61,297 nt of DNA from a virus (taxonomy: Duplodnaviria; Caudoviricetes): positions 1 to 61,297 of the IMG/VR virus record IMGVR_UViG_3300017754_001058. One strand, written 5' to 3'. Shown here piece by piece: positions 15,127-47,602 of the stretch. How positions within the stretch are numbered: position 1 is the first letter of the stretch; every line of letters starts with the position of its first letter. Under the pieces are notes generated by a model that was given only the letters and a program-made list of their open reading frames with translations, ran no database searches and was not told where the DNA came from. The translations under genes and the position numbers were made by a program.

Positions 15127-16437
15127 ATGGAAACTAAACCGTTCAGCATCCAGTCTCCTGAAGCGATTGCCAAGGAGTACGGTGGCAACAAGCAGAAGAT
15201 TGCTCAGGCCATGCAGATGGGGATCGTTGACCCCACTGCGGGTACGCTGGCCGGTATGTTCATCGACCGGATGCGCTCCGCAGCGCAGCAGGAACAGGCA
15301 CCGCAGCAGACTGTTGCTCAGCAGATTATGGCCCCGCAGCCCACACCTGCTCCTCCTGCTCCCCCTATGGGCGCTCCCCCCGCTGGTCTTGGTGCTACGC
15401 CAGAAGCAGCACAGATGATGGCTCCCCCGATGGAGCAGGCTATGGGTATGGCCGAAGGCGGCATGGTGCCGCCCTACATGGCTGGCGGTGGTCTAACCGA
15501 CCTGCCAGTGCCTGATGATATGTTCGACGAACCCCACGACGGCAGCTATGCTGGCGGCGGGATCGTTGCGTTTGCTGCGGGTACGCCGCGTGGAGTGAAG
15601 GCTGCCAAAGCAAAGACACCCGAAGAGTTGGCGGTTGAAGCCAAAGCCAAATCACCTAAGAGCCTCTACGGCAACTATGAAAATCCCGAAGCGCAGCGGG
15701 AGTATATCGAGTCTATATACAAGCCGGAGCGTGAAGCCAGTACCTCTCTTATAGACAGGCTTAAGGGTGCCGGTAGCCCTGAGGAAATGAAGCGCCGCGA
15801 GAACGAGGACATCGGTTCTTTCCTTATGAACTTCGGTGGCAATTTGGCGAGCAAGGCAGGACCTTTTCTATCAGCAGCGGGTGAGTCTCTTGTGGCCACC
15901 ACTCCCCTCCTGCGCGAAAGCGCTAAAGAGCGTCGGGCTGACCAGATGGACGCGCTTAAAACCATGGCTGCTCAGGAAGGGCTTAACAATAAGGAAGCCC
16001 TCGACCTGTACAAGCTGGTGCAGGAGGGCACTAACAAGTACGGCGAGTTTGATGTTGCGCGCCTTACCCGTGAGCAGCAAGAACGACTCGCGCTCCTTCA
16101 AGAGAAGGGTGCAAACTTTAGGGCACGTATGCAGGCTGCTACCAGCATGTATAATGCTGATAAGGGTTACCAAGGGCAGGTGGACGCCGCTGCTCTTAAT
16201 CTCGGTAAGCAAGGCATTGAGATTAGGAAACTTGCTATCAAATCAGTGGACGATAAGATCGGTCCGGGCGGCGATCTTCAGCCACAGTATCTTGATGCAC
16301 TAGAAAAGGGTACAGGCGCTGCTTACCGATCAAGGTTGATTACAGAAGCTGTAGCTGAGATTTCAGATGGCCTTGGTGTAGGCGGCGGTGGCGACGCAGG
16401 TGTTATACGCTACGGCGCGGACGGTAAGAGGATTTAA
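15127..16437 (+). CDS. Putative internal virion protein
   Basis: 436 aa, Pro/Gln linker, MAEGG/MAGGG/YAGGG motifs, helical C-half. Confidence 0.65.
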   Translation: METKPFSIQSPEAIAKEYGGNKQKIAQAMQMGIVDPTAGTLAGMFIDRMRSAAQQEQAPQQTVAQQIMAPQPTPAPPAPPMGAPPAGLGATPEAAQMMAPPMEQAMGMAEGGMVPPYMAGGGLTDLPVPDDMFDEPHDGSYAGGGIVAFAAGTPRGVKAAKAKTPEELAVEAKAKSPKSLYGNYENPEAQREYIESIYKPEREASTSLIDRLKGAGSPEEMKRRENEDIGSFLMNFGGNLASKAGPFLSAAGESLVATTPLLRESAKERRADQMDALKTMAAQEGLNNKEALDLYKLVQEGTNKYGEFDVARLTREQQERLALLQEKGANFRARMQAATSMYNADKGYQGQVDAAALNLGKQGIEIRKLAIKSVDDKIGPGGDLQPQYLDALEKGTGAAYRSRLITEAVAEISDGLGVGGGGDAGVIRYGADGKRI

Positions 16438-16438
16438 C

Positions 16439-19400
16439 ATGCCAATCCGTGCCCAATCGGCTGACGGTAAAATCCACGAGTTCCCAGACGGCACATCACC
16501 AAGCGTAATTGACAGGGTTATGTTTGACTACGCCAAGTCAATTCCTGCTGCTCGCCCTGCACCTACACCTACACCTACACTTACACCTGCTGCTGTGAAG
16601 CCGGGGGCAGAAGCGCCGAATGCGCTTGAGAAGATGGGGTCGCTTGGTTCGCTTGCCGCGTCGGCTGCGGATGTCCCCCTCTCTGCTATTGCTGGGTTGG
16701 CTGGGAGCAGTAAGACTTTCACCGACTTGTTTGGTGCTGACAACGTAGCGTCTAAGGCGCTCGACGATGTTTCTCGTTTGGCTTCGGAGTGGAAATCCTC
16801 TGGGGCGCGTCAGGACGCCAAAGACGCCGCACGAGTGCAGAAGGAAGCCGAAGGCAAGGGTATCTGGGAAGAAGTTAAGGCCGCAGCCAAGGCGTTCACC
16901 TATTCTCCGCTGGAAACTACGGCCAGCGTTCTAGGCTCCTCGGTCCCCTACGCTGCGACAGCTTTGGGCGCTGCTGCTCTTGCTCCTGCATCGGGAGGCG
17001 CAAGCCTCGCCGCATTGTACGGTACGGTAGGCGCTGCTGCGTCTGGTGCCGCTTCCGGCGCGGGTATGATTAAGGGCGACATCTACGACGCTCTGTACTC
17101 TGCGGCGCGAGAAAAAGGTGTCCCTGAAGAGCGAGCAAGGGCTGCTGCAGAGAAGGCGCAGGAGTACGTTGGTCCTAACACCGACCAGATCGCACTGGGT
17201 AGTTTGCTTGGCGCTGCTGCGGCAGCAACCGGTCTTTCGCGTCAGGCTCTGAGTGTAGTTGTCCGCAATGCTGAACGAAAACTCCTGAAGACCGTTACCG
17301 AGAGAACGGGCCGGAAGAGTATTGTTCGAGGTGTCGCACAGGGTGCTCTGGAAGAAGCTATCCCTGAAGCCACACAGGCGGGGCAGGAGCGCTACGCACA
17401 GAATGTTGCCCTTAAGCGGGCTGGGTATGATGTAGACCCGTTGGCTGGCGTTGCTGGTCAAGCAGCATTTGAAGGTCTCGCTTCGCTTATTCCCGGTGGG
17501 TTTGGCGGTGGTAAAGCCGCTGCCACGGAAAATCTAAGCGGGGTACCGCTTCCTCAGAGTAAAGAGCAGATCAAAGCTGAGCGCGAACTGGCGCGGCAGG
17601 CGAAAGCTGCGGGCATCGACCTCGATGAAGAGTCGATTGGCGCTACTTATAATGCGCTTGTGACTAAGCTCGTAGCTGAAGGCATGCCTGAGAGTGAGGC
17701 ACTGATTAAAGCTAGCTCTCTCCTGCCCAGTATTATTGGTGTTCCCGCTAGTGACCTTGGGGAAGTCCCTACCGCAGGTGCAGCAAAGCCTGCGCCTACG
17801 GTCCGTGTGGCTGACGTCACCCCCTCACCTTCCAAAGCCGAGCCTACACGGGCACCGTTGCAGGAAGTTACTCCTGACAAGCTGGCGGAGACGCTGCCCA
17901 CCATCGACGCCGCCTTTACAGAAAACGCAGAGGATTTTGCGGCTGAATATGATGGCGTCACCGAGCTTACGCCCGAAGTCCGCAACGCTGCTGCGGAGCT
18001 TGTCGTCTCGTCAGGTATCGACCCGATTGATGCTATTGGTAGTGTGCTTGAGAGCGCTCAACGCGCTGCGGCTAAACCTATCACTGCGCCTGTAACTCCC
18101 TCGGTAGACGAAGCTGCGGTAGCCCCCGTTGCCGACGCTATTAAGCAGGCTGCTGCCCCTACGGATACTGCTACCCCCTCACTGGCTGAGACGGCAGCGC
18201 GCGATACGGGTATTACTGAAGCCCCCGTGGAGACGCTCGAAGAAGCGATAGCCGATGTCACCCCTGCGCCCGTTGAGGAAGCTGCACCGGTAGTCGAAGA
18301 AGCCACGCCTGCGCCTGTTGAACAAGCGGTGGCTGAGCCTACGCCCGTTGCACCTGAAGCTGCGCCGGAAGCCCCTCCACAGAAAACCATCATCGTCGTG
18401 CATGGTGGCTCTAACTTTGAGGGTATTGACCCTAAGTATTTTGGTACCGGAGAGCCGGGTAACATCCGCCCTCTGGGGAACGGTCTGTACGGCTATGTTA
18501 TTGACAGCACCAACACAGACGAGATTGCAAAGGCGGTTGAGTTTGCTCGCCGCTACGCAGAGAAGTATGGCCGGGGTAATAAAGCCGTCCATGCCTTTCA
18601 GCTTGATGTTGAAGGCGCACGCACCGGGTTTAACGGTCAAGTTATTGAGTCCCTACAGGGTGCGGTCGGCCCTGAACTCCAACGGTATTATGAGACTGCG
18701 GATGCGCGGGATGCTCTACCTGTGGGTTCTCCTGAACGTAAAGCGGCTCAGGCCGAGTTTGAGAAAGCCTACGAGGCCCTCAAAAAAATCCCCGAAGCTA
18801 TGCGTTTCGAACGCCTACCCGTTGGCCTCACTGAAGTCGGTGTAACCGATACTGGGCGTCTGAAACGCATCGGGAAAATCGGTATTGAGCAGTCGGACGC
18901 TGAACTCGTAAAGATCATTCAGGACGCACTTGGGGTCTCTGAAACCCAACAGGAAGCGGTAGCCGAAGAAGAGCTTGCTGCTGAAGAAGCAGTGGTAGAA
19001 GAAGCGGCGGCTGAGCCTGAGGTGGACCCGTACGATACGGCGCTGTACGCTATCGAGGAAGCTTTTTGGGCTACAGACGAAGATGGTAACCCACAACCTG
19101 AGATCGACAAAAAAGCGTATGACCTACTTATCTTGAACGTAGAGAATAAGCTTAACACCCCCGAAAAAATTCTTGCTGGGCTTCAGAAGGCTAAGGCTAG
19201 TTTTGGCGAGCAGCTATTTAACCAACGCTACCGCCCCGGCACTAAAACTACGGGTATCCCACTTGCAGACGCACAAGCTGCTGTAAGCGGGGTGGCTAAG
19301 GGTATCGGGGCTACCCCCAATGTGGTGCAGTCGTTTGACGACCTACCCCCGGAAGCCCAACAGCAAGCGCGGGCAGACGGCGCAACAGACGCGGCAGGTA

Positions 19401-22400
19401 TCGTCACTGCTGACGGTCAAGTGCATCTTATCGCTGACAAACTCGCAGATGCTGCTGATGCGGTGGCTACTCTGTACCATGAGGTCTTGGGACATCTGGG
19501 TTTGGCGAAGTTGTTCCGTAGCAGGCTCGATACCCGCCTTAAGGAGATGTACCGGGGTAACAAGAAGCTGCGTGATGACGTCGATGCGTTCATCGCGGAA
19601 AACCCTGACGCATACCCCAACGACCCTGACCCACTTGCTCGTGCAGTAGAGGAAATCCTCGCGCAGCGGTCTGAGGGTGGTAAGATCGAAGCTAGCCTGC
19701 TGGCTAAGATCGCCGGGGTCATCAAGGACATCGGTCGCCGCATCGGCATTAAGTCAGACTTCAGTGATGCTGAGATTGGGTCGATCCTCTCGCGTGCTCA
19801 CGATATGGCTATTAACGGTACGCAGGAAGGTAAAACCGGCCAACGCTACGCCCGCAAAAAGAAGACCGGTCCGGGTAAGGAAGTGCAGCGGGCAGAGCAG
19901 ATGCTTGCCCGTTCGCGTAACCCCGGCAACCTCAACCAAGCTACTTCGACCATCATGAAGGTGAAGCGGAGCGGTCGCCGCCTGCAGAACCTGATGAACA
20001 TCATTCCGGGCGTCATCACGACCAAGCGCGGTCGGTTTATGCTGCAGTTTCTTACCCCTGCGGATGTAGGTAGGTTGGCGAAGCGCCAGTCAAACGCTCT
20101 TGGGATGCGTCTCGATAAGGTAGCGCTGGCTATGTCGGAGATGCGTAAAGCCCGCACTACGATGCAGGCTACGCTGCAGCAGCAGACGTATCGTTGGAAC
20201 AAGTTCAATGTGCGTTTCAAGGCGGGCGGTCGTATATTGTCAGACCTGATTAACCTCGGTACCCTGTACAATATCGACTGGCGTCGTGCGGACAATGTTC
20301 GCGACTTCATTGCGCAGGACGACAAGATCAGAGAGATCATCGCGGACCCCAAGCTAGGGCAGCGCGCTAAGGATAACCGCATCAAAGCCCGCACTGAGTT
20401 GGCCGAAATGGTCTACGCGCGTCGGGACGCTCTTATGCGTCCCGAAAACGGTAAGGGTGAAGGTCTCAAAATCTTCGACATGGCTGCTAAAGCCTACCGG
20501 GGAACCTTCGACCGCCAGCTTGCGGGTGTGTTGGCGCGTATCAACAACTCCTCTTTGTCTCCTACCCGCAAGGCTGCTGCTACTAAGCAGGTGAAGGCCA
20601 TGTTTGCAGAGGCAGAAAAGATCGGTCTCTACTTCCCGCTTGGGCGTGAGGGCGACTACTGGATGCGCGTCGGTCAGGGTAAGAACCGCGAGTACCAGCA
20701 GTTTGTGAGTCAGATTGATCGCGACCTCGCCCTGCGTGAGCGCTACGACGAGATGGTCGAGAACGGCGAGAAGCGCCCATACGACGAGATTATCCGCTCC
20801 GGTGAACTCCGCTTCGGTGACAATGCAAATACGCTGCAGGATGATGTCGTAGAAAACGACCCTACCCGTATGCTACAGGGTATGCTCAACGAACTGGATG
20901 CCGGTAACATCACAGACCTCAAGGCTGTCAAAGAACAGCTTACCCAGATGTACCTGCAAACGATGCCAAAGGCGGCACAGGCTGCTGCTATGCAGCGGCG
21001 CGAGGGCATTTCGGGTTTCACAGCCAACACTCTGCGCACTTTTGCTACCACTCAGAGCGCAGCGGCTAATCGCCTTGCTCGTCTGGAGCACGGGGATACC
21101 ATTCGTAACAATCTGGCTGCAGCCTACGCTCTTATCCAGAATGATCCCGAGCAGGATCAGTTGAAGCCCTATGTAGATCAGTTCGCTGAGTTTGCCGGTC
21201 GCCAGCTAGCGCCCGCTCAAGGTGATCCTTGGATGGAGTCTATCGCTAACTTCGCGAACCGAGCTACGTTCCTGTACATGATGACCAGCCTCAAGACGGC
21301 TATCATCCAACCCCTGCAGCTTTCGACCACGGGTATGTCGGCACTTGTCCGTGAGTACGGGGCAAATGCTCCCGCGCTAGCCTTCCGTAACATGACCCGC
21401 TTCTATAAGCTGCTGGGTACGTCGAAGCTCGATGAGGATGGTAACGTCATCACCAAGTGGGGCCAGCCGTCTATGAACGACGGTGGCTACATCAACGACG
21501 AGCCTGATCCTGAAATGCAGGGTTTCCTCAAGTTTCTGTGGAACGGCGGTAACGACCGGGGAGCGTTTGCTACCAACTTTACCGGCGATATCTCTGGTGA
21601 CCGGCAGGGGGATTTCGGCGTCTACGATAACGTGGTGCTTGAAGCGACCCGCAAGACCCTTGGCTTCGTGCACAACTTCATGACGGGTGCGGGCTTCCAT
21701 ACTGAGCGCATTTCGCGTGAAGTGATGTTCATGTCAGCCGGTGTGCTTGAGTATAAGAAGCTGCGTAAAGCTGGTGTCAGCCCAGCGGATGCTGCCAAGC
21801 GCGCAGAGCAGAAGGCTGCGGACCTTACTCTCGAAACCCTGTTCGACTACAATGTGGACGCAAAGCCGATGGTGGCTCGTGGTCCGGTGGGGCGTGTCGT
21901 TTTCCAGTTCGCCACCTTCACGATGAACATGTCTTCGATGCTCATCAGGAACTTCTACAACGCTGTGAGCCTTAAGTCGTCGCTGCGGGAGCGCCGTGAC
22001 GCTTCGATCCTATTCTTCGGCACGATGGCTACCACCTTCATGTGGGCAGGTGCCACTGGTCTGCCGTTGTACACCATGTTCATGGGATTGGCTGATGTCG
22101 CCCGTGAACTGTTCCGCCCACTGCTCGAAGATGATGACGAAGACCCGCGTATGTATGACGCTGAGTCTGGTAACCCATTGGCTTACGCTAGCATGGACCT
22201 CTGGTTCCGTCAGTGGTTCCTACCGAATATGCTGGGCGGCGGGGAGTCTCAGCGCGCTGTGGAGATGGGGCCAATCTCAGCGGCTACCGACATCAACTTT
22301 AGTGCGCCCTTGTCGCTTAACGACATGTTCTTCCGCGACGAGCAGCCTGCGGATAACGTAGCCGATGCTGTCGAGAACCTGCTCATGCGTACCGGTATGG

Positions 22401-22972
22401 GTGCTGCTGGCGGTGCGGTTAAGCAGGTCACGCAGGGTATCGACTTCATGCTTGCAGGTGACGGCCAACGTGCGGCTGAAAAGCTGATGCCGTACAACTT
22501 CCTACGCCAACCTCTTATCGCCCGTCGACTTCAGGAGGAGGGTTACATTACTCCTAAGGGCGTAGAGCTTAAACCCGCAGAGTTTTACACTGCGGGTAAA
22601 GTAATCGCACAGGGGGCTGGTTTCGGGTCCACCGAGGTCGCAGAGGCGCAGAAGCGCAACATCCTGTTCTCCCGTGCTACCGATAAGGTTGATACCGTTA
22701 GGGGCAAGGTCATGCGCGCCTACGGGGATGCATACCTCAAATACCTGACGAAGCCGACTGCCGAGAACCGTACTACTCTCGAAAAAGCTGACGAGCAGTA
22801 CAACGAGTACAACATGGAGTACGGTCTCATCAATCCGATCACCGTTGAGCAGATGCAGCAGTCGGTCCAGTCTCGTGCCGAGGACCGCGAAGCGGCCAGA
22901 CAGCTTGGCGGTATCCAGACGGATAAGAAGAACCGTGTGCTGGCTCAGGACATGCTGCAGCAGGGCCAATAA
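16439..22972 (+). CDS. Very large internal virion protein of polyvalent-protein type
   Basis: ATG at 16439, 1 nt after the previous stop (MPIRAQSADGKIHEFPDGT); contains HGGSNF..GTGE..GNGLY, LYHEVLGHLGL...EEILA and YFPLGREGDY motifs. Confidence 0.75.
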   Translation: MPIRAQSADGKIHEFPDGTSPSVIDRVMFDYAKSIPAARPAPTPTPTLTPAAVKPGAEAPNALEKMGSLGSLAASAADVPLSAIAGLAGSSKTFTDLFGADNVASKALDDVSRLASEWKSSGARQDAKDAARVQKEAEGKGIWEEVKAAAKAFTYSPLETTASVLGSSVPYAATALGAAALAPASGGASLAALYGTVGAAASGAASGAGMIKGDIYDALYSAAREKGVPEERARAAAEKAQEYVGPNTDQIALGSLLGAAAAATGLSRQALSVVVRNAERKLLKTVTERTGRKSIVRGVAQGALEEAIPEATQAGQERYAQNVALKRAGYDVDPLAGVAGQAAFEGLASLIPGGFGGGKAAATENLSGVPLPQSKEQIKAERELARQAKAAGIDLDEESIGATYNALVTKLVAEGMPESEALIKASSLLPSIIGVPASDLGEVPTAGAAKPAPTVRVADVTPSPSKAEPTRAPLQEVTPDKLAETLPTIDAAFTENAEDFAAEYDGVTELTPEVRNAAAELVVSSGIDPIDAIGSVLESAQRAAAKPITAPVTPSVDEAAVAPVADAIKQAAAPTDTATPSLAETAARDTGITEAPVETLEEAIADVTPAPVEEAAPVVEEATPAPVEQAVAEPTPVAPEAAPEAPPQKTIIVVHGGSNFEGIDPKYFGTGEPGNIRPLGNGLYGYVIDSTNTDEIAKAVEFARRYAEKYGRGNKAVHAFQLDVEGARTGFNGQVIESLQGAVGPELQRYYETADARDALPVGSPERKAAQAEFEKAYEALKKIPEAMRFERLPVGLTEVGVTDTGRLKRIGKIGIEQSDAELVKIIQDALGVSETQQEAVAEEELAAEEAVVEEAAAEPEVDPYDTALYAIEEAFWATDEDGNPQPEIDKKAYDLLILNVENKLNTPEKILAGLQKAKASFGEQLFNQRYRPGTKTTGIPLADAQAAVSGVAKGIGATPNVVQSFDDLPPEAQQQARADGATDAAGIVTADGQVHLIADKLADAADAVATLYHEVLGHLGLAKLFRSRLDTRLKEMYRGNKKLRDDVDAFIAENPDAYPNDPDPLARAVEEILAQRSEGGKIEASLLAKIAGVIKDIGRRIGIKSDFSDAEIGSILSRAHDMAINGTQEGKTGQRYARKKKTGPGKEVQRAEQMLARSRNPGNLNQATSTIMKVKRSGRRLQNLMNIIPGVITTKRGRFMLQFLTPADVGRLAKRQSNALGMRLDKVALAMSEMRKARTTMQATLQQQTYRWNKFNVRFKAGGRILSDLINLGTLYNIDWRRADNVRDFIAQDDKIREIIADPKLGQRAKDNRIKARTELAEMVYARRDALMRPENGKGEGLKIFDMAAKAYRGTFDRQLAGVLARINNSSLSPTRKAAATKQVKAMFAEAEKIGLYFPLGREGDYWMRVGQGKNREYQQFVSQIDRDLALRERYDEMVENGEKRPYDEIIRSGELRFGDNANTLQDDVVENDPTRMLQGMLNELDAGNITDLKAVKEQLTQMYLQTMPKAAQAAAMQRREGISGFTANTLRTFATTQSAAANRLARLEHGDTIRNNLAAAYALIQNDPEQDQLKPYVDQFAEFAGRQLAPAQGDPWMESIANFANRATFLYMMTSLKTAIIQPLQLSTTGMSALVREYGANAPALAFRNMTRFYKLLGTSKLDEDGNVITKWGQPSMNDGGYINDEPDPEMQGFLKFLWNGGNDRGAFATNFTGDISGDRQGDFGVYDNVVLEATRKTLGFVHNFMTGAGFHTERISREVMFMSAGVLEYKKLRKAGVSPADAAKRAEQKAADLTLETLFDYNVDAKPMVARGPVGRVVFQFATFTMNMSSMLIRNFYNAVSLKSSLRERRDASILFFGTMATTFMWAGATGLPLYTMFMGLADVARELFRPLLEDDDEDPRMYDAESGNPLAYASMDLWFRQWFLPNMLGGGESQRAVEMGPISAATDINFSAPLSLNDMFFRDEQPADNVADAVENLLMRTGMGAAGGAVKQVTQGIDFMLAGDGQRAAEKLMPYNFLRQPLIARRLQEEGYITPKGVELKPAEFYTAGKVIAQGAGFGSTEVAEAQKRNILFSRATDKVDTVRGKVMRAYGDAYLKYLTKPTAENRTTLEKADEQYNEYNMEYGLINPITVEQMQQSVQSRAEDREAARQLGGIQTDKKNRVLAQDMLQQGQ

Positions 22973-32311: not shown

Positions 32312-32784
32312 TTCTTGATTCCCAGTGGTTGGTTAAGTTGGTTGAGCAAATCTGGCGGGTAGCCGGTCATCATCGGTTGCTGCTGAGCGTAGACATCTTG
32401 TAGTTGTTGGTTCAGCATCTTCTGTGCGTCCCTCTGCATATCGCTCACCTTCTGGATTCCGGTCCCCTGCGCTGTCAGTGGGTACGCCTTCCCTTTCCCT
32501 GCGCTCAATTGCTGAAGGGTTTTCAACTGTTCTTCCCGCTGACGTTCTTCTTCTGCGCGGCGCTCAGGGCCGGTAAGCAGTTCATCCATTACCCACTCAT
32601 GGATTTCGCCTAGACGGATGTCCCGCATTGCTGCGTTGAGCGCTGTCTTTTCGGCCTCATTCCCATATTCAAGTATACCCTCTACAAAGCCTCCCCAGCG
32701 GTTTGTGCCACGCGTAAACTCTTCAGGGTGACTCTCCATCCGCTTGAGTAGCAGTCGGGTGACTGCGTGTAGTTCATCCGCCAT
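32308..32784 (-). CDS. Hypothetical protein
   Basis: 158-aa coupled ORF; LLLKRMESHPEEF. Confidence 0.7.
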   Translation of the reverse strand: MADELHAVTRLLLKRMESHPEEFTRGTNRWGGFVEGILEYGNEAEKTALNAAMRDIRLGEIHEWVMDELLTGPERRAEEERQREEQLKTLQQLSAGKGKAYPLTAQGTGIQKVSDMQRDAQKMLNQQLQDVYAQQQPMMTGYPPDLLNQLNQPLGIKK

Positions 32785-33088
32785 TGCGTGCTTCCTTTTT
32801 TATCTCTCGGTCTCGTTTAGCCACGATTTGCCGTACACGCTCTTTAGTTATGCCGTACCTATCGCCTATCGCTTGTAGCGTAGCGCCTTCTTCTTTGCGC
32901 TCACGCCATATAGCTTTACGGCGACTAGCACCGTCGTTCCCAAACTCTTTCCATACTGCTGCCCTTCTTGCGCTACGCGCTTCGTCATCGGCGCACTGTT
33001 TCTGGTATCGCTCTTCCGCCTCCGATAATCTTTGGCTCCACTCTTCATCAGATATGGGGCTAGACCACCAGTCTGGGTCACCCGCCAT
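32774..33088 (-). CDS. Protein with a sigma70 region-4-like HTH
   Basis: GATLQAIGDRYGITKERVRQI resembles the RpoD region 4.2 pattern TLEEVG..F.VTRERIRQI; AAGGAGCAA RBS. Confidence 0.75.
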   Translation of the reverse strand: MAGDPDWWSSPISDEEWSQRLSEAEERYQKQCADDEARSARRAAVWKEFGNDGASRRKAIWRERKEEGATLQAIGDRYGITKERVRQIVAKRDREIKKEARNGG

Positions 33089-33614
33089 TGCTTGCTCCTT
33101 CTATGCTCTGTAACTCTCGGCTCTCCAGCCAATCTATTAACTGCCAGCCAGTGATATATCTGTTCAACCGCCCAGCCTTTGGACTTGGTATAAGCACGAC
33201 TGCCAAGTTACCCGCTTCGATTTCGCGGTTTAGTATCGCTGTCGAAAGACCCAGCGCAGCGGCTGCGTCGGTAGGCTTATAGAGCATCGCGTAGTGCTGC
33301 ACTCGACGTGTCAACGTAGTACGGGCTTCCTCGGCGCGATCTTCTGTTACCTTGGCTAGCCTAGACTCCTTCTTGGGTTTGCGTAGATGGATGTTATATC
33401 TAGGACCTTCAGTCTGGACTGCCGTAACTTCAGCTACCATCGCCTCCCTACGGTTAGGGAAGTACTCGATAGTGATATTAGCAATCTGGTCAGTCCATCC
33501 AGAAACTGCACTATGCTGCTTGGTGCGGATTAGGGGGCGGAAGCTGATACCTACGTAGAGCAACGCGCCATCAGCATCAAAGTGCCGGTACAGAGCGCAC
33601 TTTCTATCCGCCAT
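33078..33614 (-). CDS. GIY-YIG-like nuclease with a C-terminal HTH
   Basis: LYRHFD..G.LLYVGIS...R..QH...AE..AV..E.P.YN; C-terminal DAAAALGLS...IEAGNL. Confidence 0.7.
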   Translation of the reverse strand: MADRKCALYRHFDADGALLYVGISFRPLIRTKQHSAVSGWTDQIANITIEYFPNRREAMVAEVTAVQTEGPRYNIHLRKPKKESRLAKVTEDRAEEARTTLTRRVQHYAMLYKPTDAAAALGLSTAILNREIEAGNLAVVLIPSPKAGRLNRYITGWQLIDWLESRELQSIEGASNGG

Positions 33615-35421
33615 AGCTCTTCCCCATCTTGCTCTCACAGTTAAGTGGCAGGCCCTCGGCCCACTTTGGTTTGATCCTCATGCACTCCTCGACAAAGGCG
33701 CGGCCCTCCGCTGCATCTGCATCTGGTACGATAGACCCAACAGCGTCATGCACGGTCATAGCGACCTTCTGGCGGCGAGAAATCATCAGCATCTGCTCAC
33801 CGATAATGATGCGGGCCAGTGCCTGACAGACGTTCTCGATCAGCTTCCCGCCGTAGAGACGGTTAGGGATAACCGCTCGGCCCTTCTTCTGGTCGTAGAC
33901 GAACTCACGCCGACCTTTGTCACCCGTCACTGCTCGCAGGTTAGGGTACTTTAGGTATAGCCCGTTAGGGAGACGGATACCGAAGGCGTTGACCAAGACC
34001 ACACCCTCCTTACCCAACGGCGAAGTCGTGCCGCTAAGTAGGGCGGCGATGGCATCTTGCCCCTCCTGCCATAGGCCAGTGATCTTGGGGTAGGTATCAC
34101 GGTACACGTTGATGATGAACTCGCAGGTGGGTGGGCTAAGGTCCACGCCGAAGGTCTTAAGCTGCGCTTGGAACTTCTTGGCACCCATGCCGTAACCCGC
34201 GCCAAGGATGGTAGTTTTACCCACAAAACGCTCGGCGTCCGTCACATCCTCAATCGACTTACTGTAGATGCGCGAAGCCATGATCTTATAAACGTCCTCA
34301 CCGTTAGTGAAGGCATCCACTAGGTCATCCTGCCCAGCCAGCCACGCCAAGGTGCGCGCTTCGATCTGACTACTGTCGCAGTCGATGAAGGTATAACCCT
34401 CAGGTGCCTTGATGGCCTTCTTGAGTGGCGACTTGCGCGGCAGGTTCTGCATGTTCACCTTGTCGTCACCACCCCAGCGGCCTGTATGGGCAGCGTAGTA
34501 GCGCAAGGGGATCGGCAGTGTGCCACGGTCAGCGATGTTGATGAACCGCTCGGTGCGTGTCTCTTCGAGGGTAGACTTTACCCCTAGCCGCGCAGCGACA
34601 ATGGCTTGCACCATCGGGTTGTCATGATCCAGCAGTTCCTTGAACGCCTCGTCACTCTTGGCGAAGGCGTAGGTCTCCTTACCCGTCGTAAGGCTAACCT
34701 TCATCGGCACGTCCACCCCATGAAACTCAAGCAGCGAAGCCAGCTTGGGGTTACTCATCAGGTCGGCCTTCTCGTAGTTGAGCTTACTCATAAGCTCCGC
34801 TTTGGCGGCCTGTACGCGGATGATGTGGTCGTTGAGGATGTCCTTATCCAACCGCAGCACAGGCTCACTGAACATGCGGATCGTCAGGTCCACCAGCCGC
34901 TGCTCTAGCATAGGGAACTTAGGTGCCATGCACTCGAACAGCTTGAGCGTCAGGTCGCAGTCGTTGCTGCAGTAGTCCCCATACACCGCTAGCTCTCCGG
35001 GCGTGAAGTCGATGCGCCGTTTGCCCAGCGCGTTAAGCACCTCGGTGCCTTTCTCGCCCACGCCATAGAACTCGGCCAGCGCCTTGAGGCTAACCCCCGT
35101 CTCGTTGCCATGTAGCGCACGAGCCATAGACAGCGTGTCAGCGATGCGCTTCGGGCGGATGTCGAAGTGCCAGTTGAGGATAGCCATGTCGAACAAGGCG
35201 TTGTGAGCCAGCGCGATGGCGTTGTCCCAGTCGAACTGGTCGAGCCACTTCTTCGTAGCCGCCTTAGTCCCACTGAACCACTGCGCGTCGCCGGTACCGA
35301 CCTTTACGGATACGCCGATAACCTCAAAACGAGGATCGCGGATATACTCCTCCGTTGTTATCTTGGAGAGGCTATACGCAGGGTCGTAGTAGGTTTCGAA
35401 GTCGATGGTGATTAACTGCAT
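33604..35421 (-). CDS. DNA polymerase family A with a 3'-5' exonuclease domain
   Basis: IDFET, AHNALFD, YC.ND (exonuclease); HTGRW, NMQNLP, DSSQIEAR, RFVGKTTILGAGYG, TVHD (polymerase). Confidence 0.95.
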   Translation of the reverse strand: MQLITIDFETYYDPAYSLSKITTEEYIRDPRFEVIGVSVKVGTGDAQWFSGTKAATKKWLDQFDWDNAIALAHNALFDMAILNWHFDIRPKRIADTLSMARALHGNETGVSLKALAEFYGVGEKGTEVLNALGKRRIDFTPGELAVYGDYCSNDCDLTLKLFECMAPKFPMLEQRLVDLTIRMFSEPVLRLDKDILNDHIIRVQAAKAELMSKLNYEKADLMSNPKLASLLEFHGVDVPMKVSLTTGKETYAFAKSDEAFKELLDHDNPMVQAIVAARLGVKSTLEETRTERFINIADRGTLPIPLRYYAAHTGRWGGDDKVNMQNLPRKSPLKKAIKAPEGYTFIDCDSSQIEARTLAWLAGQDDLVDAFTNGEDVYKIMASRIYSKSIEDVTDAERFVGKTTILGAGYGMGAKKFQAQLKTFGVDLSPPTCEFIINVYRDTYPKITGLWQEGQDAIAALLSGTTSPLGKEGVVLVNAFGIRLPNGLYLKYPNLRAVTGDKGRREFVYDQKKGRAVIPNRLYGGKLIENVCQALARIIIGEQMLMISRRQKVAMTVHDAVGSIVPDADAAEGRAFVEECMRIKPKWAEGLPLNCESKMGKSYGG

Positions 35422-36457: not shown

Positions 36458-36621
36458 CGCCCCTGCTCCTTCGGGTTACGCTGGGTGTCTGCGCCTTTTG
36501 CCTGCCAGAGGTGTCCTCTGGCCTTGTCGCTCATGTAGATGCGCTCGGTCTTCCCATCGGGAAAGAGACGCCAGAACCTACGGTTGTGGATGATTACCTT
36601 TGAGTTGTCGGGCTTGCTCAT
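36454..36621 (-). CDS. Small hypothetical protein (not in the ORF track)
   Basis: MSKPDNSKVIIHNRRFWRLFPDGKTERIY...; stop overlaps the next start. Confidence 0.55.
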   Translation of the reverse strand: MSKPDNSKVIIHNRRFWRLFPDGKTERIYMSDKARGHLWQAKGADTQRNPKEQGR

Positions 36622-36721
36622 ATCTGTGTTCTACTTCCCATACGGCGGCGTCGATGACGGCCATCCAACCAAGGACAACGGCGGTGGCTATAATTACGCA
36701 CCAAGCCACCGCCCTCGCCAT
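36578..36721 (-). CDS. Small TM peptide (not in the ORF track)
   Basis: [24 protein letters not shown]...; TGATG coupling and GAGGA RBS. Confidence 0.5.
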   Translation of the reverse strand: MARAVAWCVIIATAVVLGWMAVIDAAVWEVEHRYEQARQLKGNHPQP

Positions 36722-37101
36722 CACTCGTTTTCCTCTAAAGGTATCGTGCTGGGCATCAGATTGGCGATACGCTGCAATTCCAGCACAGCTTCAGCGTAAA
36801 CTACCTTGGCGGTGCGGATGCGCGCCATTGCATGGGTCAGCTCCTCTTCAACGCTAAGGGAAGGCGTCTTGCGCAACTCAAGTCCAAACAAATCCAACAA
36901 CTCCTTCACTTCATGCAGGCTTTTGCGCCCGAAATTAGGGATGCGAAGGAGTTCAGATTCCGACTTAGCTACAAGGTCACGAAGGGTGTGGATGTTCTCG
37001 TTGAAAAAGCAGTTGATCGGGCGCACGGAGAACTCTAGCTCATCCACCCCAACGTCCAACGGGTTACGATCACCTAGCATGGTTTTAATCCACGGGGTCA
37101 T
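36721..37101 (-). CDS. Stand-alone RNA polymerase alpha subunit C-terminal domain homologue
   Basis: [14 protein letters not shown]...[26 protein letters not shown]...GL.L aligns by eye with the RpoA CTD; AAAGGAG RBS before ATG 37101. Confidence 0.9.
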
Positions 37102-37103
37102 TA

Positions 37104-37403
37104 TTAAGCTCCTTTCAGTTTGCGGATAAGTCCCGACACCATGTCCCAATTGGTCTCATCCACTATAACAGCCACACCGCCCGCTTGGCGGATGGTCTCA
37201 ATCTCTCGGATTTGAAGGGCGGTGGCCTTGTTACCGCCCGCCTTGCACTCGATAGCCAGAAACTTCCCTGCTACGCAGCAAACGATGTCGGGGACACCGC
37301 TCCGTCCATACCCATGCGTAGCAGGGAAGAAGTAGTAGACACCCTCATCACGGAGGACTTTGACTACCTTGGCTTTGACCTTGCCTTCGGGGGTGAGTGC
37401 CAT
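37104..37403 (-). CDS. VRR-NUC domain nuclease
   Basis: [28 protein letters not shown]. Confidence 0.88.
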
Positions 37404-37422
37404 GGGTTGCTCCTTGTTGGCC

Positions 37423-37450
37423 ATCGTACCATTACATTATACAGTGTCAA
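37423..37450 (-). promoter_or_regulatory. Putative sigma70-type promoter
   Basis: - strand TTGACA-N16-TACGAT; shares TTGACACTGTATAATGT with 27761-27777. Confidence 0.7.
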
Positions 37451-39883: not shown

Positions 39884-41116
39884 TCAATTGTCTTTGATGT
39901 GAACCGTTTTACCCACGGGGGCAGTGATCTTGCTGCCACGATACGAGTTGCAAACCACCCACATGATGGGTGCATCCCAATCTGAACCCCAGTCATAGAT
40001 TTCCCCGTCAGTCAGCATGATGATGCACTCTGGCTCGATCTTGTTGGTCTTGAGGTAGTGCATCATGGCGCGGGGGTCCGTGCCACCGCCACCCTTCGGC
40101 TTGGTCGAGCTAACAATGTTAGCCATGTCGTTCTCGTCGTAGGTCTCATGGGCTGCAACGTGTGCGTCCCAGTAGATGAGGTCGATCTTCTCGGGGCGAA
40201 CGTCTTCGGCAATGGACTTCACCTCGGACAAGAAGCGGTTGATCTCCTTGCCGCTGATCGAACCTGATGTGTCTACGCCGATAGCCAGAGAGCCGACACG
40301 CTCACCGATCATGGTGGGCATGTAGGTGTCAGAGCCAAGGAACCGACGATTGACACGCCGCCACGATGACGTGTCGCGGGCGTTGCAGATGGACTTGACG
40401 AACTCACGCAGCACCTCACGCCAGTCGATCTGCGGTTCAAGCAGGTCGCCCAGTTCGCGGGACATGTTGCCAGCCTTGTTGCCGATAGCCTTCTTCTCGG
40501 CCATCATGCCTTGGCGGATGGCTTGGTCGATCTCGCGCTCAAGCTCCTTCTTCTCCTCGGGGCTGAGACCCTTGGCACCATCCCAGTCGTGGTCGTCGAA
40601 GCCTTCGCCGCCTTCGCCTTCACCCTCGCCGCCTTTGCCGCCATTCTCTTGCTGCTCTTGCTTGAGTATGTCGAACACCTGCTTGGCGTTCATGCCACGG
40701 AAGCGCGCGTCGAAGCACCCGATGCGCTCACCCTTGGGGTCGCGCGGGAACGCCGCCCACTGCTCGGTCGGGTCGCTGTCCACGATCATCAGGTTGATGA
40801 CGTAATCACAGGCCATGTTGGCGAGGCGCTTGTCAGCATCCCACAGCTTGCGCCAGATAGTCAGGTGACGCAGCGCCTTGTGCATGTTCTCGTGCAGGAT
40901 GACGAAGGCCAACTCCTTGTCGGTCAGGCCCTTGATGAACTCGCGGCCATACATCTCGTCGCGCCCGTTGGTGCAAGCGGTGGGGATGTCGTCTGATATC
41001 TCGGTCTTGCCCACCATCATGATGCCAGACCACAGCGCGAACTTGGGGTTGCGCATCAGGTCGATCTTGACCTTCTTCAGCTTGCGCTCAACCTTGTCTT
41101 TCTGTTCAGCTAACAT
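39884..41116 (-). CDS. Metallopeptidase-like domain plus VWA domain (DUF2201-type)
   Basis: TACTNG, LHENMH (HExxH), ANMACDYVIN, VDTSGS (MIDAS), GGGGTD, LTDG. Confidence 0.88.
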   Translation of the reverse strand: MLAEQKDKVERKLKKVKIDLMRNPKFALWSGIMMVGKTEISDDIPTACTNGRDEMYGREFIKGLTDKELAFVILHENMHKALRHLTIWRKLWDADKRLANMACDYVINLMIVDSDPTEQWAAFPRDPKGERIGCFDARFRGMNAKQVFDILKQEQQENGGKGGEGEGEGGEGFDDHDWDGAKGLSPEEKKELEREIDQAIRQGMMAEKKAIGNKAGNMSRELGDLLEPQIDWREVLREFVKSICNARDTSSWRRVNRRFLGSDTYMPTMIGERVGSLAIGVDTSGSISGKEINRFLSEVKSIAEDVRPEKIDLIYWDAHVAAHETYDENDMANIVSSTKPKGGGGTDPRAMMHYLKTNKIEPECIIMLTDGEIYDWGSDWDAPIMWVVCNSYRGSKITAPVGKTVHIKDN

Positions 41117-41345
41117 TGTTAGTTGCTCCTCGTTGAAGTTCTTTGATCTGCTTGAATACGTCTAACTCGTCCTTGGCCCACATCTTGACGTCATGCGGCC
41201 AACCATTGATCCACAGCGTCACCACCCAGACCATCGGGTCCTTGGGTGACCGCTTCATCACATCGAGTTCTACCTTCTTGCCACGTAGGGACGGGGGCGG
41301 CGTCAGATTACGCCGCCTGTTCCGGTTCATAATATCCCTACTCAC
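41106..41345 (-). CDS. Hypothetical protein (AxDEL motif)
   Basis: GTGA coupling; KMWAKDELDVF. Confidence 0.6.
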   Translation of the reverse strand: MSRDIMNRNRRRNLTPPPSLRGKKVELDVMKRSPKDPMVWVVTLWINGWPHDVKMWAKDELDVFKQIKELQRGATNNVS

Positions 41346-42433
41346 AGCAGGTCTTCGTTCTGCTCCAGCCAGTCAGCGAACGCCTTGTTGGTGAAGGCCA
41401 TCGGTTGCTTTGCTGCGTTGGAACACAGGTTGATGGCGAAGCAAGCCTGCCACTCGCTGTCGAACCGCTCCATGTACTGCATGAACGGGGTCAGCGACTG
41501 CTTATCGACCTTCTGGATGGCACCGAACACAAGCACTGCAGATGCGCCAGCAGACGTAGGTATCTGTGCCGACTTGGGCGCAGCGAGGATGCTCTCCCAC
41601 GACGGAAGCTGATCTTGGTAGTCGATGAACGCCTGCATATCGCGGGCTGCAGACTCACCGATACAGCCCTTGAGCGCAGCGATGGTAGCCTCCGGCCCGT
41701 TCGCATCACGCTGGCTAACAATGTTAGAGGCGATAGCGAGTGAGCGCGGCGAGACGTAGGCAGTCTGCATCTTCTTGGGGTTGTAGATGTAGGGGTTGTC
41801 GCCTTGGCTCTCGTCTGTGTAGCTGGCAAGGGCCTGCGGGAATTGCCGCACCCATGCCATGACAACGGGGTCGATACCGTTGTTGACTGCCCACTCAAGC
41901 CACTGCGTATCGTCGGGTTTAGAGACTGTTATTTCTACAATCCTATTCCGAGTGTGCGCCTTCATGTTATCCCCTACGGCGTCAGTCGTAAGGTTGCCGG
42001 TCATGAAGATGATGGAGCGGTCAGCGTCATCTTCGACTCCCTCGTCGATGAACAAGTCGCCAAGGCGCGGGGCCGTCACCTCCAGCAGCGGGTGCAGCAT
42101 GTTCTTGATAGGCTCCATACCTTTGGTGAACTCGTCGAGCATGATGATGACGGGCTTGCCCTCATGCAGTCGGAACCGCGCGTTGGGATAATAGCGGGTG
42201 GTGCGCGTCTCGTGGTCGATCACAGGCATGGCGATGTCGCCAAGGTCCATGTTGGGTACGTCCATGTATGCTGCGTTATGGGTAGAGGCCAGCTTCTTGG
42301 CGATGAACGAGAGCATGGTGGACTTGCCGATGCCGGGTTCGCCACGGACAAGGAACCGAACCTTGGGGTTGGTCATGATGAGGGTGGCAGCTTGCTTGAG
42401 GCTCACGGTCGAGCCGAAGTTGATCGTGGTCAT
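41342..42433 (-). CDS. AAA+ ATPase (MoxR-like)
   Basis: Walker A GEPGIGKS, Walker B IMLDE, TGN, RNR, SPRS. Confidence 0.9.
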   Translation of the reverse strand: MTTINFGSTVSLKQAATLIMTNPKVRFLVRGEPGIGKSTMLSFIAKKLASTHNAAYMDVPNMDLGDIAMPVIDHETRTTRYYPNARFRLHEGKPVIIMLDEFTKGMEPIKNMLHPLLEVTAPRLGDLFIDEGVEDDADRSIIFMTGNLTTDAVGDNMKAHTRNRIVEITVSKPDDTQWLEWAVNNGIDPVVMAWVRQFPQALASYTDESQGDNPYIYNPKKMQTAYVSPRSLAIASNIVSQRDANGPEATIAALKGCIGESAARDMQAFIDYQDQLPSWESILAAPKSAQIPTSAGASAVLVFGAIQKVDKQSLTPFMQYMERFDSEWQACFAINLCSNAAKQPMAFTNKAFADWLEQNEDLL

Positions 42434-46998: not shown

Positions 46999-47090
46999 CT
47001 TGCTCCTACCTAACAATGTTAGGCTTTTGTATGCCGTGCCATCCAGCACGGGCTTGGTTGCGGCTAAGCTGGTCTTGCTCGCCTATTATT

Positions 47091-47119
47091 ACCATACTAC
47101 ATTGTTATGTCCGTGTCAA
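47091..47119 (-). promoter_or_regulatory. Putative early promoter
   Basis: - strand TTGACA-N17-TATGGT; spacer CGGACATAACAATGTAG. Confidence 0.7.
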
Positions 47120-47189
47120 GTGATCTTGGCTGGAGGTGCGACCGGAAGGCGGACGAGTGAGGCGCAGACGGTGGGCGGGAGGGGCAACA

Positions 47190-47500
47190 GGGTTGTAAGG
47201 GAAAAGGGTGCTTTGTAAGACGGATGTTAGGAAAGCGCCTTACAAAAGGGAGGTCGGAAAACCCTTTGAAACGAGTGTGTTGTGTGTTGTTGTATTGTAT
47301 TGTTATAATGTAAGTAGAAAAAACAAGTATAACCGACTCTGTGGGATTCGTGCATCTGCACTTGCCGGAGGGCCAAAGCGAAAACTCAAAAAGGGATCGT
47401 TCTCTAAAAACGCCCTTACAATATAACAATGCTTACATTGCTTGAAAACAAAGGAATGTTATGCTTACAACCGCTACCACCAAAGTCTTACGTCATAACA
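47190..47500. other. AT-rich non-coding region with repeated CTTACA/TGTAAG hexamers, candidate origin
   Basis: About 7 copies in both orientations around AT-rich tracts (47280-47330, 47400-47470). Confidence 0.45.
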
Positions 47501-47572
47501 TTGTTAGCCAGCCGCCAGCCGCTTAGTCAATACGGTGCTAGGAACTATCATAAAGTGCCTTGACGCAGGCCC

Positions 47573-47602
47573 AAAAAAACCCCATGCACGAAGTGCATGG
47601 GG
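47573..47602 (-). terminator. Intrinsic terminator after gene 47672..48220
   Basis: 10-bp perfect stem CCCCATGCAC/GTGCATGGGG plus U7 on the - strand. Confidence 0.9.

Follow-up and report, generated by a model that had tools for sequence, protein, structure and literature searches.

A free-standing copy of the RNA polymerase alpha subunit C-terminal domain, extended by a conserved helix, in a freshwater phage and its relatives

What might a phage do with the promoter-reading domain of RNA polymerase (RNAP) once that domain is detached from the enzyme? The question is raised by P0001, a gene of 126 amino acids (aa) on the minus strand of the window, by which we mean the whole 61,297-b stretch of DNA that was analysed. 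This is the entire IMG/VR virus record IMGVR_UViG_3300017754_001058, which is estimated to be 98% complete and comes from an uncultured freshwater phage (Duplodnaviria; Caudoviricetes). An initial annotation, made from the letters alone, had described a 126-aa open reading frame (ORF) at 36721-37101, without stating its strand, and had read it as a stand-alone C-terminal domain of the RNAP alpha subunit (alpha-CTD). The ORF is as described, its strand being minus, and its product is indeed a phage-encoded, stand-alone homologue of the RpoA CTD (Pfam E 2.8e-21; 52% identity to Escherichia coli RpoA). Its homology and fold, the residues that it retains, its purifying selection and its retention throughout the clade are shown here, whereas DNA binding, the target and the outcome are inferred: in the reading that we favour, P0001 would be a trans-acting mimic that binds promoter-upstream DNA. 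The gene and its parts are as follows.

36721..37101, minus strand: P0001, stand-alone alpha-CTD gene of 126 aa, stop codon included; homologues are of the same length
37109..37115, minus strand: Shine-Dalgarno-like AAAGGAG, 7 nt before the ATG of P0001, invariant in four aligned phages
37060..37101, minus strand: residues 1-14 (N-terminal segment), predicted to form a short helix at 3-9; conservation of M1, L9 and R12 reaches 90% or more among family members
36871..37059, minus strand: alpha-CTD domain, residues 15-77, with four helices (26-34, 40-44, 48-52 and 59-71), from Pfam, BLASTP and Foldseek
36760..36852, minus strand: family-specific C-terminal helix, residues 84-114, from AlphaFold2 and the family alignment

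The frame runs from an ATG at 37101 to a TGA at 36721-36723. A longer frame of 142 aa, started by TTG, is disfavoured, because all close homologues begin at the methionine equivalent to the ATG, and because AAAGGAG is correctly placed for that codon.

The identity of the domain was addressed by the profile hidden Markov model search that the initial annotation had proposed. RNA_pol_A_CTD (PF03118) matched residues 13-69 of P0001 over profile positions 9-65 of 67, with 75.4 bits against a cut-off of 23.8, and a six-frame search of the whole record returned an RNA_pol_A_CTD match at 36895-37065 (76.1 bits). BLASTP aligned residues 19-76 without gaps to residues 257-314 of E. coli RpoA (from NC_000913), which gives the equivalences R27=R265, N30=N268, C31=C269, G58=G296, K60=K298, S61=S299, E23=E261 and D20/E21=D258/D259. 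R265, N268, C269, G296, K298 and S299, which we take to be the DNA-contact '265 determinant' of the E. coli alpha-CTD, are all six identical in P0001; the five that had been picked out earlier within the motifs SVRPINC and NFGRKS (R265, N268, G296, K298 and S299) are thus all confirmed. The acidic residue of the E261 type is the one by which the E. coli alpha-CTD touches sigma region 4.

Searches of structures agree with this assignment. All 54 distinct Protein Data Bank (PDB) sequences matched by phmmer are RNAP alpha, the best being from Caulobacter crescentus (9zum, 1.2e-16; 7ye1, 1.9e-15), some 10 bits over those from Mycobacterium, Bacillus and E. coli. AlphaFold2, run with 17 or 98 family sequences, gave a mean predicted local distance difference test (pLDDT) of 81.4 or 84.5 and a predicted template modelling score (pTM) of 0.53 or 0.57, with helices at 3-9, 26-34, 40-44, 48-52, 59-71 and 84-114. 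Over residues 11-70 the pLDDT is 91-95, and the model shows the compact helical fold of the alpha-CTD, of the double helix-hairpin-helix, (HhH)2, type. Its best Foldseek match is 9zum, a Caulobacter alpha-CTD on AT-rich DNA (E 8e-8; TM 0.8 by target), and the top 50 PDB matches are all RNAP alpha chains, the ternary structure 3n97 among them. PHROGs returned for P0001 only matches at E 0.13 and 0.27.

Two other identities were rejected. A module of the RuvA-domain-II type, or a generic HhH repair module, is contradicted by the PDB matches, all of which are RpoA, and by the secondary Pfam match to HHH_5, which reached 17.8 bits, under its cut-off of 27, as compared with 75.4 bits for PF03118. 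Nor is P0001 an RpoA orthologue, since it lies in a phage genome, outside any ribosomal-protein/rpoA/rplQ context, and lacks the N-terminal domain (alpha-NTD) responsible for dimerization and core assembly. The absence of an alpha-NTD, remarked upon in the initial annotation, was upheld for both the ORF and the entire 61,297-b record, neither of which contained a match to PF01000 or PF01193, while 14 of 14 controls were detected. Accordingly, P0001 cannot be built into RNAP.

P0001 belongs to a sizeable protein family. A word-indexed search found 12 further proteins of 126-131 aa with 69-84% identity to it, and a profile search brought up 4,790 candidates, 931 of which had E<=1e-5. From the 120 matches listed, 98, which are 118-141 aa long, were kept on the basis of at least 80% query cover, and 22 that covered the domain only (P0252, P0254-P0274) were dropped; the family thus comprises at least 98 protein clusters. 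The longest contigs carrying its members cluster at 60-62 kb, and the source names of the members are all 'hypothetical protein' or evident mis-labels. Among the 98 members, the equivalent of G296 is kept in all, those of R265 and E261 in 97 each and that of N294 in 96. The K298 position is Lys in 62 and Arg in 33 (K/R in 95/98), the S299 position Ser in 73 and Thr in 18 (S/T in 91/98), the C269 equivalent is present in 82, and the N268 equivalent in 63, with His in a further 24. Compared with three related phages, the domain (residues 18-77) has a Nei-Gojobori ratio of nonsynonymous to synonymous divergence (dN/dS) of 0.16-0.22. By this measure P0001 is clearly under selection, which is purifying in the domain. 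Pseudogenization, which the initial annotation had named as an observation that would speak against its reading, is not borne out by these values or by the ORF, which is intact in 98 clusters.

Beyond the domain and a linker of lower confidence, AlphaFold2 places a helix at residues 84-114/115 with a pLDDT of about 88. The added C-terminal helix noted earlier is therefore present, at 31-32 residues instead of the ~35 first given; the amphipathicity ascribed to it is weakly supported, as a hydrophobic-moment test was not significant (z 1.2-1.5, a value that 7-13% of shuffles attain). Its sequence shows a heptad whose a positions hold L/I/Y/L/M and whose d positions hold Ala, and the helix has one small/hydrophobic face and one basic face. 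It is the best-conserved stretch of the family protein (conservation among the 98 members: A91 and A105, 98; R96, 97; A98, Y102 and Q110, 96; A97, 95; R94, K99 and R111, 94). Relatives of the tail outside the family were not detectable by Pfam, PHROGs or a protein-atlas search, and the last of these, made with residues 78-126, returned no usable feature match, its structure rows being merely single helices. It had been suggested that the helix could dimerize; a prediction of a two-copy complex scored 0.02 against a mark of 0.42 and, having been run without controls, has no bearing on dimerization either way.

The DNA that encodes the tail has a peculiarity of its own. Across the three related phages, synonymous divergence (dS) in 36721-36870 is 0.11-0.17, 3-4 times lower than in the domain-coding part (0.41-0.61). 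The tail-coding DNA is nearly invariant over ~100 nt, and similar DNA conservation is seen in the 5' half of the neighbouring resolvase gene. Recombination mosaicism or a constraint at the nucleotide level is a possible cause of the low dS.

How firmly this gene is held can be judged from related phages, in which two forms of 'alpha-CTD + helix' gene occur, here called type A (the P0001 form) and type B. The features concerned are the following, the last two being numbered within their own records.

37104..37424, minus strand: Hjc/VRR-NUC-type Holliday-junction resolvase-like nuclease, which ends 2 nt before P0001 and lies directly upstream of it in all six type-A phages examined
36578..36724, minus strand: 48-aa hydrophobic ORF, whose start overlaps the P0001 stop (GTGATG), with relatives in L002-L004
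L144, 3947-4372: type-B alpha-CTD + helix gene, with a ~20-25-residue insertion in the domain
L145, 3763-4372: type-B alpha-CTD + helix gene, with the same kind of insertion

The overlap of stop and start suggests that P0001 and the 48-aa ORF are probably translationally coupled. In six type-A phages (the source phage, L002/L116, L003/L117, L004/L118, L005/L119 and L125) the gene comes directly after the resolvase-like gene and upstream of the DNA polymerase gene polA. L144 and L145 belong to the same clade (polA 65-69% and resolvase 67-71% identical) and have no type-A gene after the resolvase; instead, an alpha-CTD ORF of ~133-145 aa with a C-terminal helix of its own, the type-B gene, directly follows polA, and in L145 it is itself preceded by a 72-aa sigma-4-like ORF. 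Relatives of the type-B gene occur in L016, L019 and L022-L026. When the two families were compared by hhalign, only the domains aligned (13-90 of type A with 4-85 of type B), and no relation between the tails was detectable. Searches of whole records found exactly one alpha-CTD ORF in the source record and one in each of four others whose completeness is 97-100%. It thus looks as if the clade keeps one 'alpha-CTD + helix' gene that is exchanged between types, a function maintained by displacement, as far as gene content can tell. One copy in every near-complete genome of the clade, despite the exchange, argues for a needed function and not for a passenger.

Detached alpha-CTDs are by no means restricted to this clade. 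IMG/VR was scanned twice, yielding 31 loci in one scan and 41 in the other, four of them common to both, from which 63 alpha-CTD ORFs outside the type-A family were extracted (59 distinct; 49-297 aa, median 153). After one fragment of 49 aa had been dropped, 58 ORFs of 85-297 aa remained. PF03118 matches 57 of these at E<=1e-3, and there is no full RpoA among them. The families that co-occur with the domain in these 58 ORFs are Sigma70_r4 in nine (best E 3.5e-16), Sigma70_r4_2 in four, HTH_26 in two, other helix-turn-helix (HTH) families and one ribbon-helix-helix family, and no enzymatic, replication or recombination domain is fused to any of them. The partners that recur are all HTH modules with sequence-specific DNA binding. 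Fusions of a strongly sigma-4.2-like HTH with an alpha-CTD occur in either domain order in L140/L141 (297 aa), L153/L156 (221 aa), L032, L128, L149 and L150; those of L140/L141 also bear an N-terminal HTH of the Cro/C1 type. The plan of an alpha-CTD followed by a long C-terminal helix recurs in several unrelated phage families.

The source phage itself encodes a tentative partner for P0001, with a further ORF beside it.

32774..33088, minus strand: P0275, sigma-70 region-4-like protein of 104 aa, downstream of polA; Sigma70_r4 33 bits against a cut-off of 24.1
33078-33638, minus strand: 186-aa ORF with weak GIY-YIG and HTH_17 matches, between polA and the sigma-4-like gene

The PDB matches of P0275 to region 4 of RpoD are weak (E 0.004-0.008). 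A P0275-like gene is present in some members of the clade (L005/L119, L125 and L145) and absent from others, and its link with P0001 comes solely from fusions or adjacency in other phages. The 186-aa ORF resembles an insertion of the homing-endonuclease type, since in L003 the next conserved gene comes straight after polA. The sigma-4 fusions, together with the sigma-4-like gene in the phage, point towards promoter biology for the alpha-CTD, and are equally compatible with the decoy and the adaptor that the initial annotation had put forward.

Several further observations concern the wider population of such domains. A search of representative proteins gave 9,821 alpha-CTD matches at E<=1e-3, a large uncharacterized population of repeated and detached alpha-CTDs; at the top of this search stood large proteins, 800-1,000 aa long, in which 11-13 alpha-CTD-like stretches follow one another in tandem (P0022, P0029, P0035 and others). 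Among cultured phages, tblastn with P0001 matched 21 records, none covering 80% or more of the query, and the best annotated matches were host-type rpoA genes inside records filed as phage. The sole annotated gene of an isolated phage that was matched is gp23 of Ruegeria phage vB_RpoS-V16 (34% identity, E 8e-4). Its 288-aa product (L115, 5923-6789) has a weakly alpha-CTD-like N-terminus and is called 'pyrophosphatase' in RefSeq and 'HTH-domain containing protein' in GenBank.

What, then, would a free alpha-CTD do in the infected cell? Neither a phage RNAP nor sigma region 2 was recognizable in the record, and the phage therefore probably relies on host RNAP for transcription, to judge from its genes; the PF00940 profile (T7-type RNAP) had no match in the record, and its control likewise matched nowhere. 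The retention of the DNA contacts and of the sigma-4-contact residue, the barred entry into RNAP, the lack of a recognizable RNAP or sigma region 2 of the phage's own and the recurrence of fusions with HTH domains only lead us to favour a trans-acting mimic. As a detached copy of the host alpha-CTD, P0001 would bind the minor groove of A/T-rich, UP-element-like DNA, and its acidic patch would be the one by which alpha-CTD touches sigma region 4. Acting in trans at promoter-upstream DNA, outside RNAP, it might vie with the alpha-CTDs of the polymerase for the sigma-4 surface and UP elements, perhaps with activators as well, and the outcome could be a damping of UP- or activator-dependent host promoters during infection. 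The C-terminal helix might stand in for the missing NTD, serving in oligomerization or in the docking of a partner. That P0001 competes with host alpha-CTDs as a decoy or occluder seems to us a tentative proposition with somewhat less than an even chance of being correct. A pure protein decoy would have no need of the DNA-contact residues that the family retains.

A number of observations weigh against a promoter-directed mimic. Isolated alpha-CTD binds DNA weakly, and the N268 equivalent is Asn in only 63 of the 98 members. P0001 lies ~10 kb inside a minus-strand replication/recombination block, between the resolvase-like nuclease and the DNA polymerase, and does not belong to the genes that come first behind the AT-rich control region (~47.1-47.5 kb). 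The sigma-4-like gene is found in only three of the six type-A phages examined, so that any partnership between P0001 and P0275 would be optional. The tail of P0001 departs from the family at positions that are 88-97% conserved elsewhere (L88, T97, V101, L109 and N114), and its dN/dS against the three related phages is 0.5-1.6. These high values stem from the unusually low dS of the tail together with lineage-specific replacements at conserved positions; on this comparison, the tail has drifted in the source phage. Finally, contigs of one metagenome run join, as weak evidence, across the type-A gene, with 106 other letters replacing 36675-37171. Relatives without the gene at this site therefore exist, which would be consistent with type-B or with gene-less relatives. 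In a second run, from another study that may be related to the source sample, the stretch is present with two differences, neither of them inside the ORF.

Alternatively, P0001 may be a positive adaptor, whose tail docks with a phage HTH protein, for instance P0275, or with the RNAP of the host, so that the extra alpha-CTD activates middle or late phage promoters through upstream A/T-rich DNA. The family-wide retention of the DNA-contact and E261-type residues would suit this role equally well, as would the joining of sigma region 4 and alpha-CTD in one ORF in nine of the 58 other phage proteins, their adjacency in L145 and the presence of P0275 in the source phage; the conservation of the tail on nearly all faces is that expected of a buried docking helix. 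However, the sigma-4-like gene is absent from three of six type-A phages and from the complete genome G001, and a conserved promoter motif preceded by an A-tract did not emerge, a scan of 30-48 kb for promoters and terminators giving counts not above those of shuffles (promoters: 7 found, 9.0 expected). We consider an adaptor unlikely on balance. The location of the gene would fit a general minor-groove accessory of the (HhH)2 type, with a part in replication, recombination or the organization of phage DNA and no direct role at RNAP, which might work with the Hjc-like resolvase or DNA polymerase or counter host silencers of A/T-rich DNA. Indeed, the gene follows the resolvase-like gene in 6/6 type-A phages and precedes polA, the type-B gene adjoins polA, the neighbours are a nuclease, DNA polymerase A, a helicase and a primase, and HHH_5 is a weak secondary match. 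Yet all six phages belong to one clade and their synteny may merely be inherited. Moreover, the identity of P0001 is to RpoA alpha-CTD (52-66%) and not to HhH modules of RuvA or polymerases, the acidic sigma-contact residue is kept in 97 of 98 members, and the 58 other phage ORFs have HTH or sigma-4 partners only. We consider such an accessory slightly less likely still than an adaptor.

The replacements in the tail of P0001 and the related contigs without the gene at the site might also be expected of a functionless passenger, or of a decaying remnant of a captured host rpoA. The intact ORF of conserved length in 98 clusters, the low dN/dS of the domain, the conserved Shine-Dalgarno site and the single copy in every near-complete genome of the clade make this exceedingly unlikely. 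Returning to the favoured trans-acting mimic, it is tempting to speculate that phages of this clade and many unrelated ones use free-standing promoter-upstream reading heads, consisting of an alpha-CTD with a docking helix or with sigma region 4, as an undescribed class of host-takeover proteins. These would rebuild the UP/-35-binding face without the enzyme and occupy or re-label promoters, P0001 and P0275 being a two-piece version of the fusions. So broad a generalization is doubtful at present.

As to origin, the best cellular matches over residues 19-76 show 60-66% identity, and 63 of the best 80 loci are from Alphaproteobacteria, the remainder being from Acidobacteriota, Nitrospirota and others. 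The resemblance of NFGRKS to alphaproteobacterial RpoA, remarked on initially, is therefore real but not exclusive, as Acidobacteriota and others share it and the genome scan, whose pattern required FGRK[ST], biased the cellular set. A phylogeny against RpoA, likewise proposed in the initial annotation, was informative on rate and not on donor. In a tree of 62 domain columns (124 rows, quick IQ-TREE), the cellular copies grouped together (SH-aLRT 89) on very short branches and the phage copies fell outside on long, unresolved ones; with six of 93 branches starred, the deep placement was unresolved and no donor can be named. The end branch of P0001 is 0.25 as compared with a cellular median of 0.057, and, judged by such branch lengths, RpoA evolves far more slowly than its detached copies. 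The cellular matches make a host or donor among the Alphaproteobacteria plausible.

The remainder of the genome is that of a tailed phage. Its GC content is ~0.57 and no tRNAs were found in the 61,297 b. Megablast of 15 kb of the record against cultured phages gave no match. Among isolates, those closest in their DNA polymerase are Rhizobium phages, at 37% identity, and Pseudomonas KPP25-like phages, at 36%. Genes for terminase, portal, major head and ejection proteins are on the plus strand; the long minus-strand block of replication and recombination genes encodes a primase/helicase, a helicase, a PD-(D/E)XK nuclease, DNA polymerase A, the resolvase, a DUF2201 metallopeptidase/VWA protein and an AAA ATPase. 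Three further features deserve mention.

1147-6876, plus strand: 1,909-aa ORF without a Pfam, PHROG or PDB sequence match, which may be a very divergent virion enzyme
16388-22972, plus strand: 2,194-aa ORF, the C-terminal third of which matches a DarB-like antirestriction PHROG (E 2.8e-26)
39884-42433, minus strand: DUF2201 metallopeptidase/VWA-like protein and, forming a pair with it inside the replication block, an AAA (MoxR-like) ATPase; related phages keep the pair

The sole cluster of A/T-rich stretches in the genome lies at 47084-47602, where there are also minus-strand matches to sigma-70-like promoters and, at 47602-47580, a strong hairpin of terminator-like form; this is probably a divergent early control region. 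Upstream of the resolvase gene, TTGACA-16-TACGAT at 37450-37423 was discounted as promoter evidence because the scan did not exceed shuffles.

The domain itself is textbook material. What is new is a defined family with a conserved tail, kept by displacement in its clade and linked to sigma-4 through fusions in other phages. Databases label detached copies 'DNA-directed RNA polymerase subunit alpha C-terminal domain-containing protein', and a search of the full-text literature (main texts in open journals) turned up no study, whether functional or descriptive, of alpha-CTD proteins that are encoded by phages or stand alone. Known phage strategies modify, cleave or bind RNAP subunits; a phage copy of an RNAP domain would represent a different principle, mimicry of the promoter-reading module. 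Being small, abundant in metagenomes and present in every near-complete genome of the clade, the family offers a tractable test case for a free alpha-CTD in the cell and an entry to the large uncharacterized population of detached and repeated alpha-CTD proteins. P0001 may also become a tool for probing UP-element- or activator-dependent transcription in Alphaproteobacteria.

Among known systems, the closest to P0001 is the alpha-CTD of RpoA (PF03118; 9zum from Caulobacter; 1lb2, 3n4m and 3n97 from E. coli), which it resembles in sequence (52% identity to E. coli, 60-66% to alphaproteobacterial proteins), in fold and in the DNA-contact and E261-type residues. It differs in being phage-encoded, untethered to an alpha-NTD and faster evolving, and in having a 14-residue N-terminal segment and a conserved 31-residue C-terminal helix, both missing in RpoA. 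With other stand-alone alpha-CTD proteins of phages and bacteria it shares the combination of a detached domain with a lineage-specific extra module, whereas its tail has no detectable homology to theirs and its family, of at least 98 clusters, is tied to one clade of ~60-62-kb phages. Phages already strike this node of host transcription by other means, and such a precedent speaks for the favoured reading: T4 Alt and ModA ADP-ribosylate R265 of alpha, which abolishes UP-element and CRP contacts (PMC2988021), and Rac of phiKMV causes cleavage of alpha (PMC7552054). P0001 would share with these proteins the target node of alpha-CTD, UP-element and activator contacts. Contrary to P0001, which is a structural copy of the target domain, they are enzymes that modify the host subunit, without any relation to it in sequence or fold. 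A last parallel is with the ternary arrangement of sigma region 4, alpha-CTD and UP/(-35) DNA seen in 3n97 and with the sigma-4/alpha-CTD fusions of other phages: the source phage encodes both modules, P0001 and P0275, as separate genes 3.6 kb apart that co-occur in three of six type-A phages.

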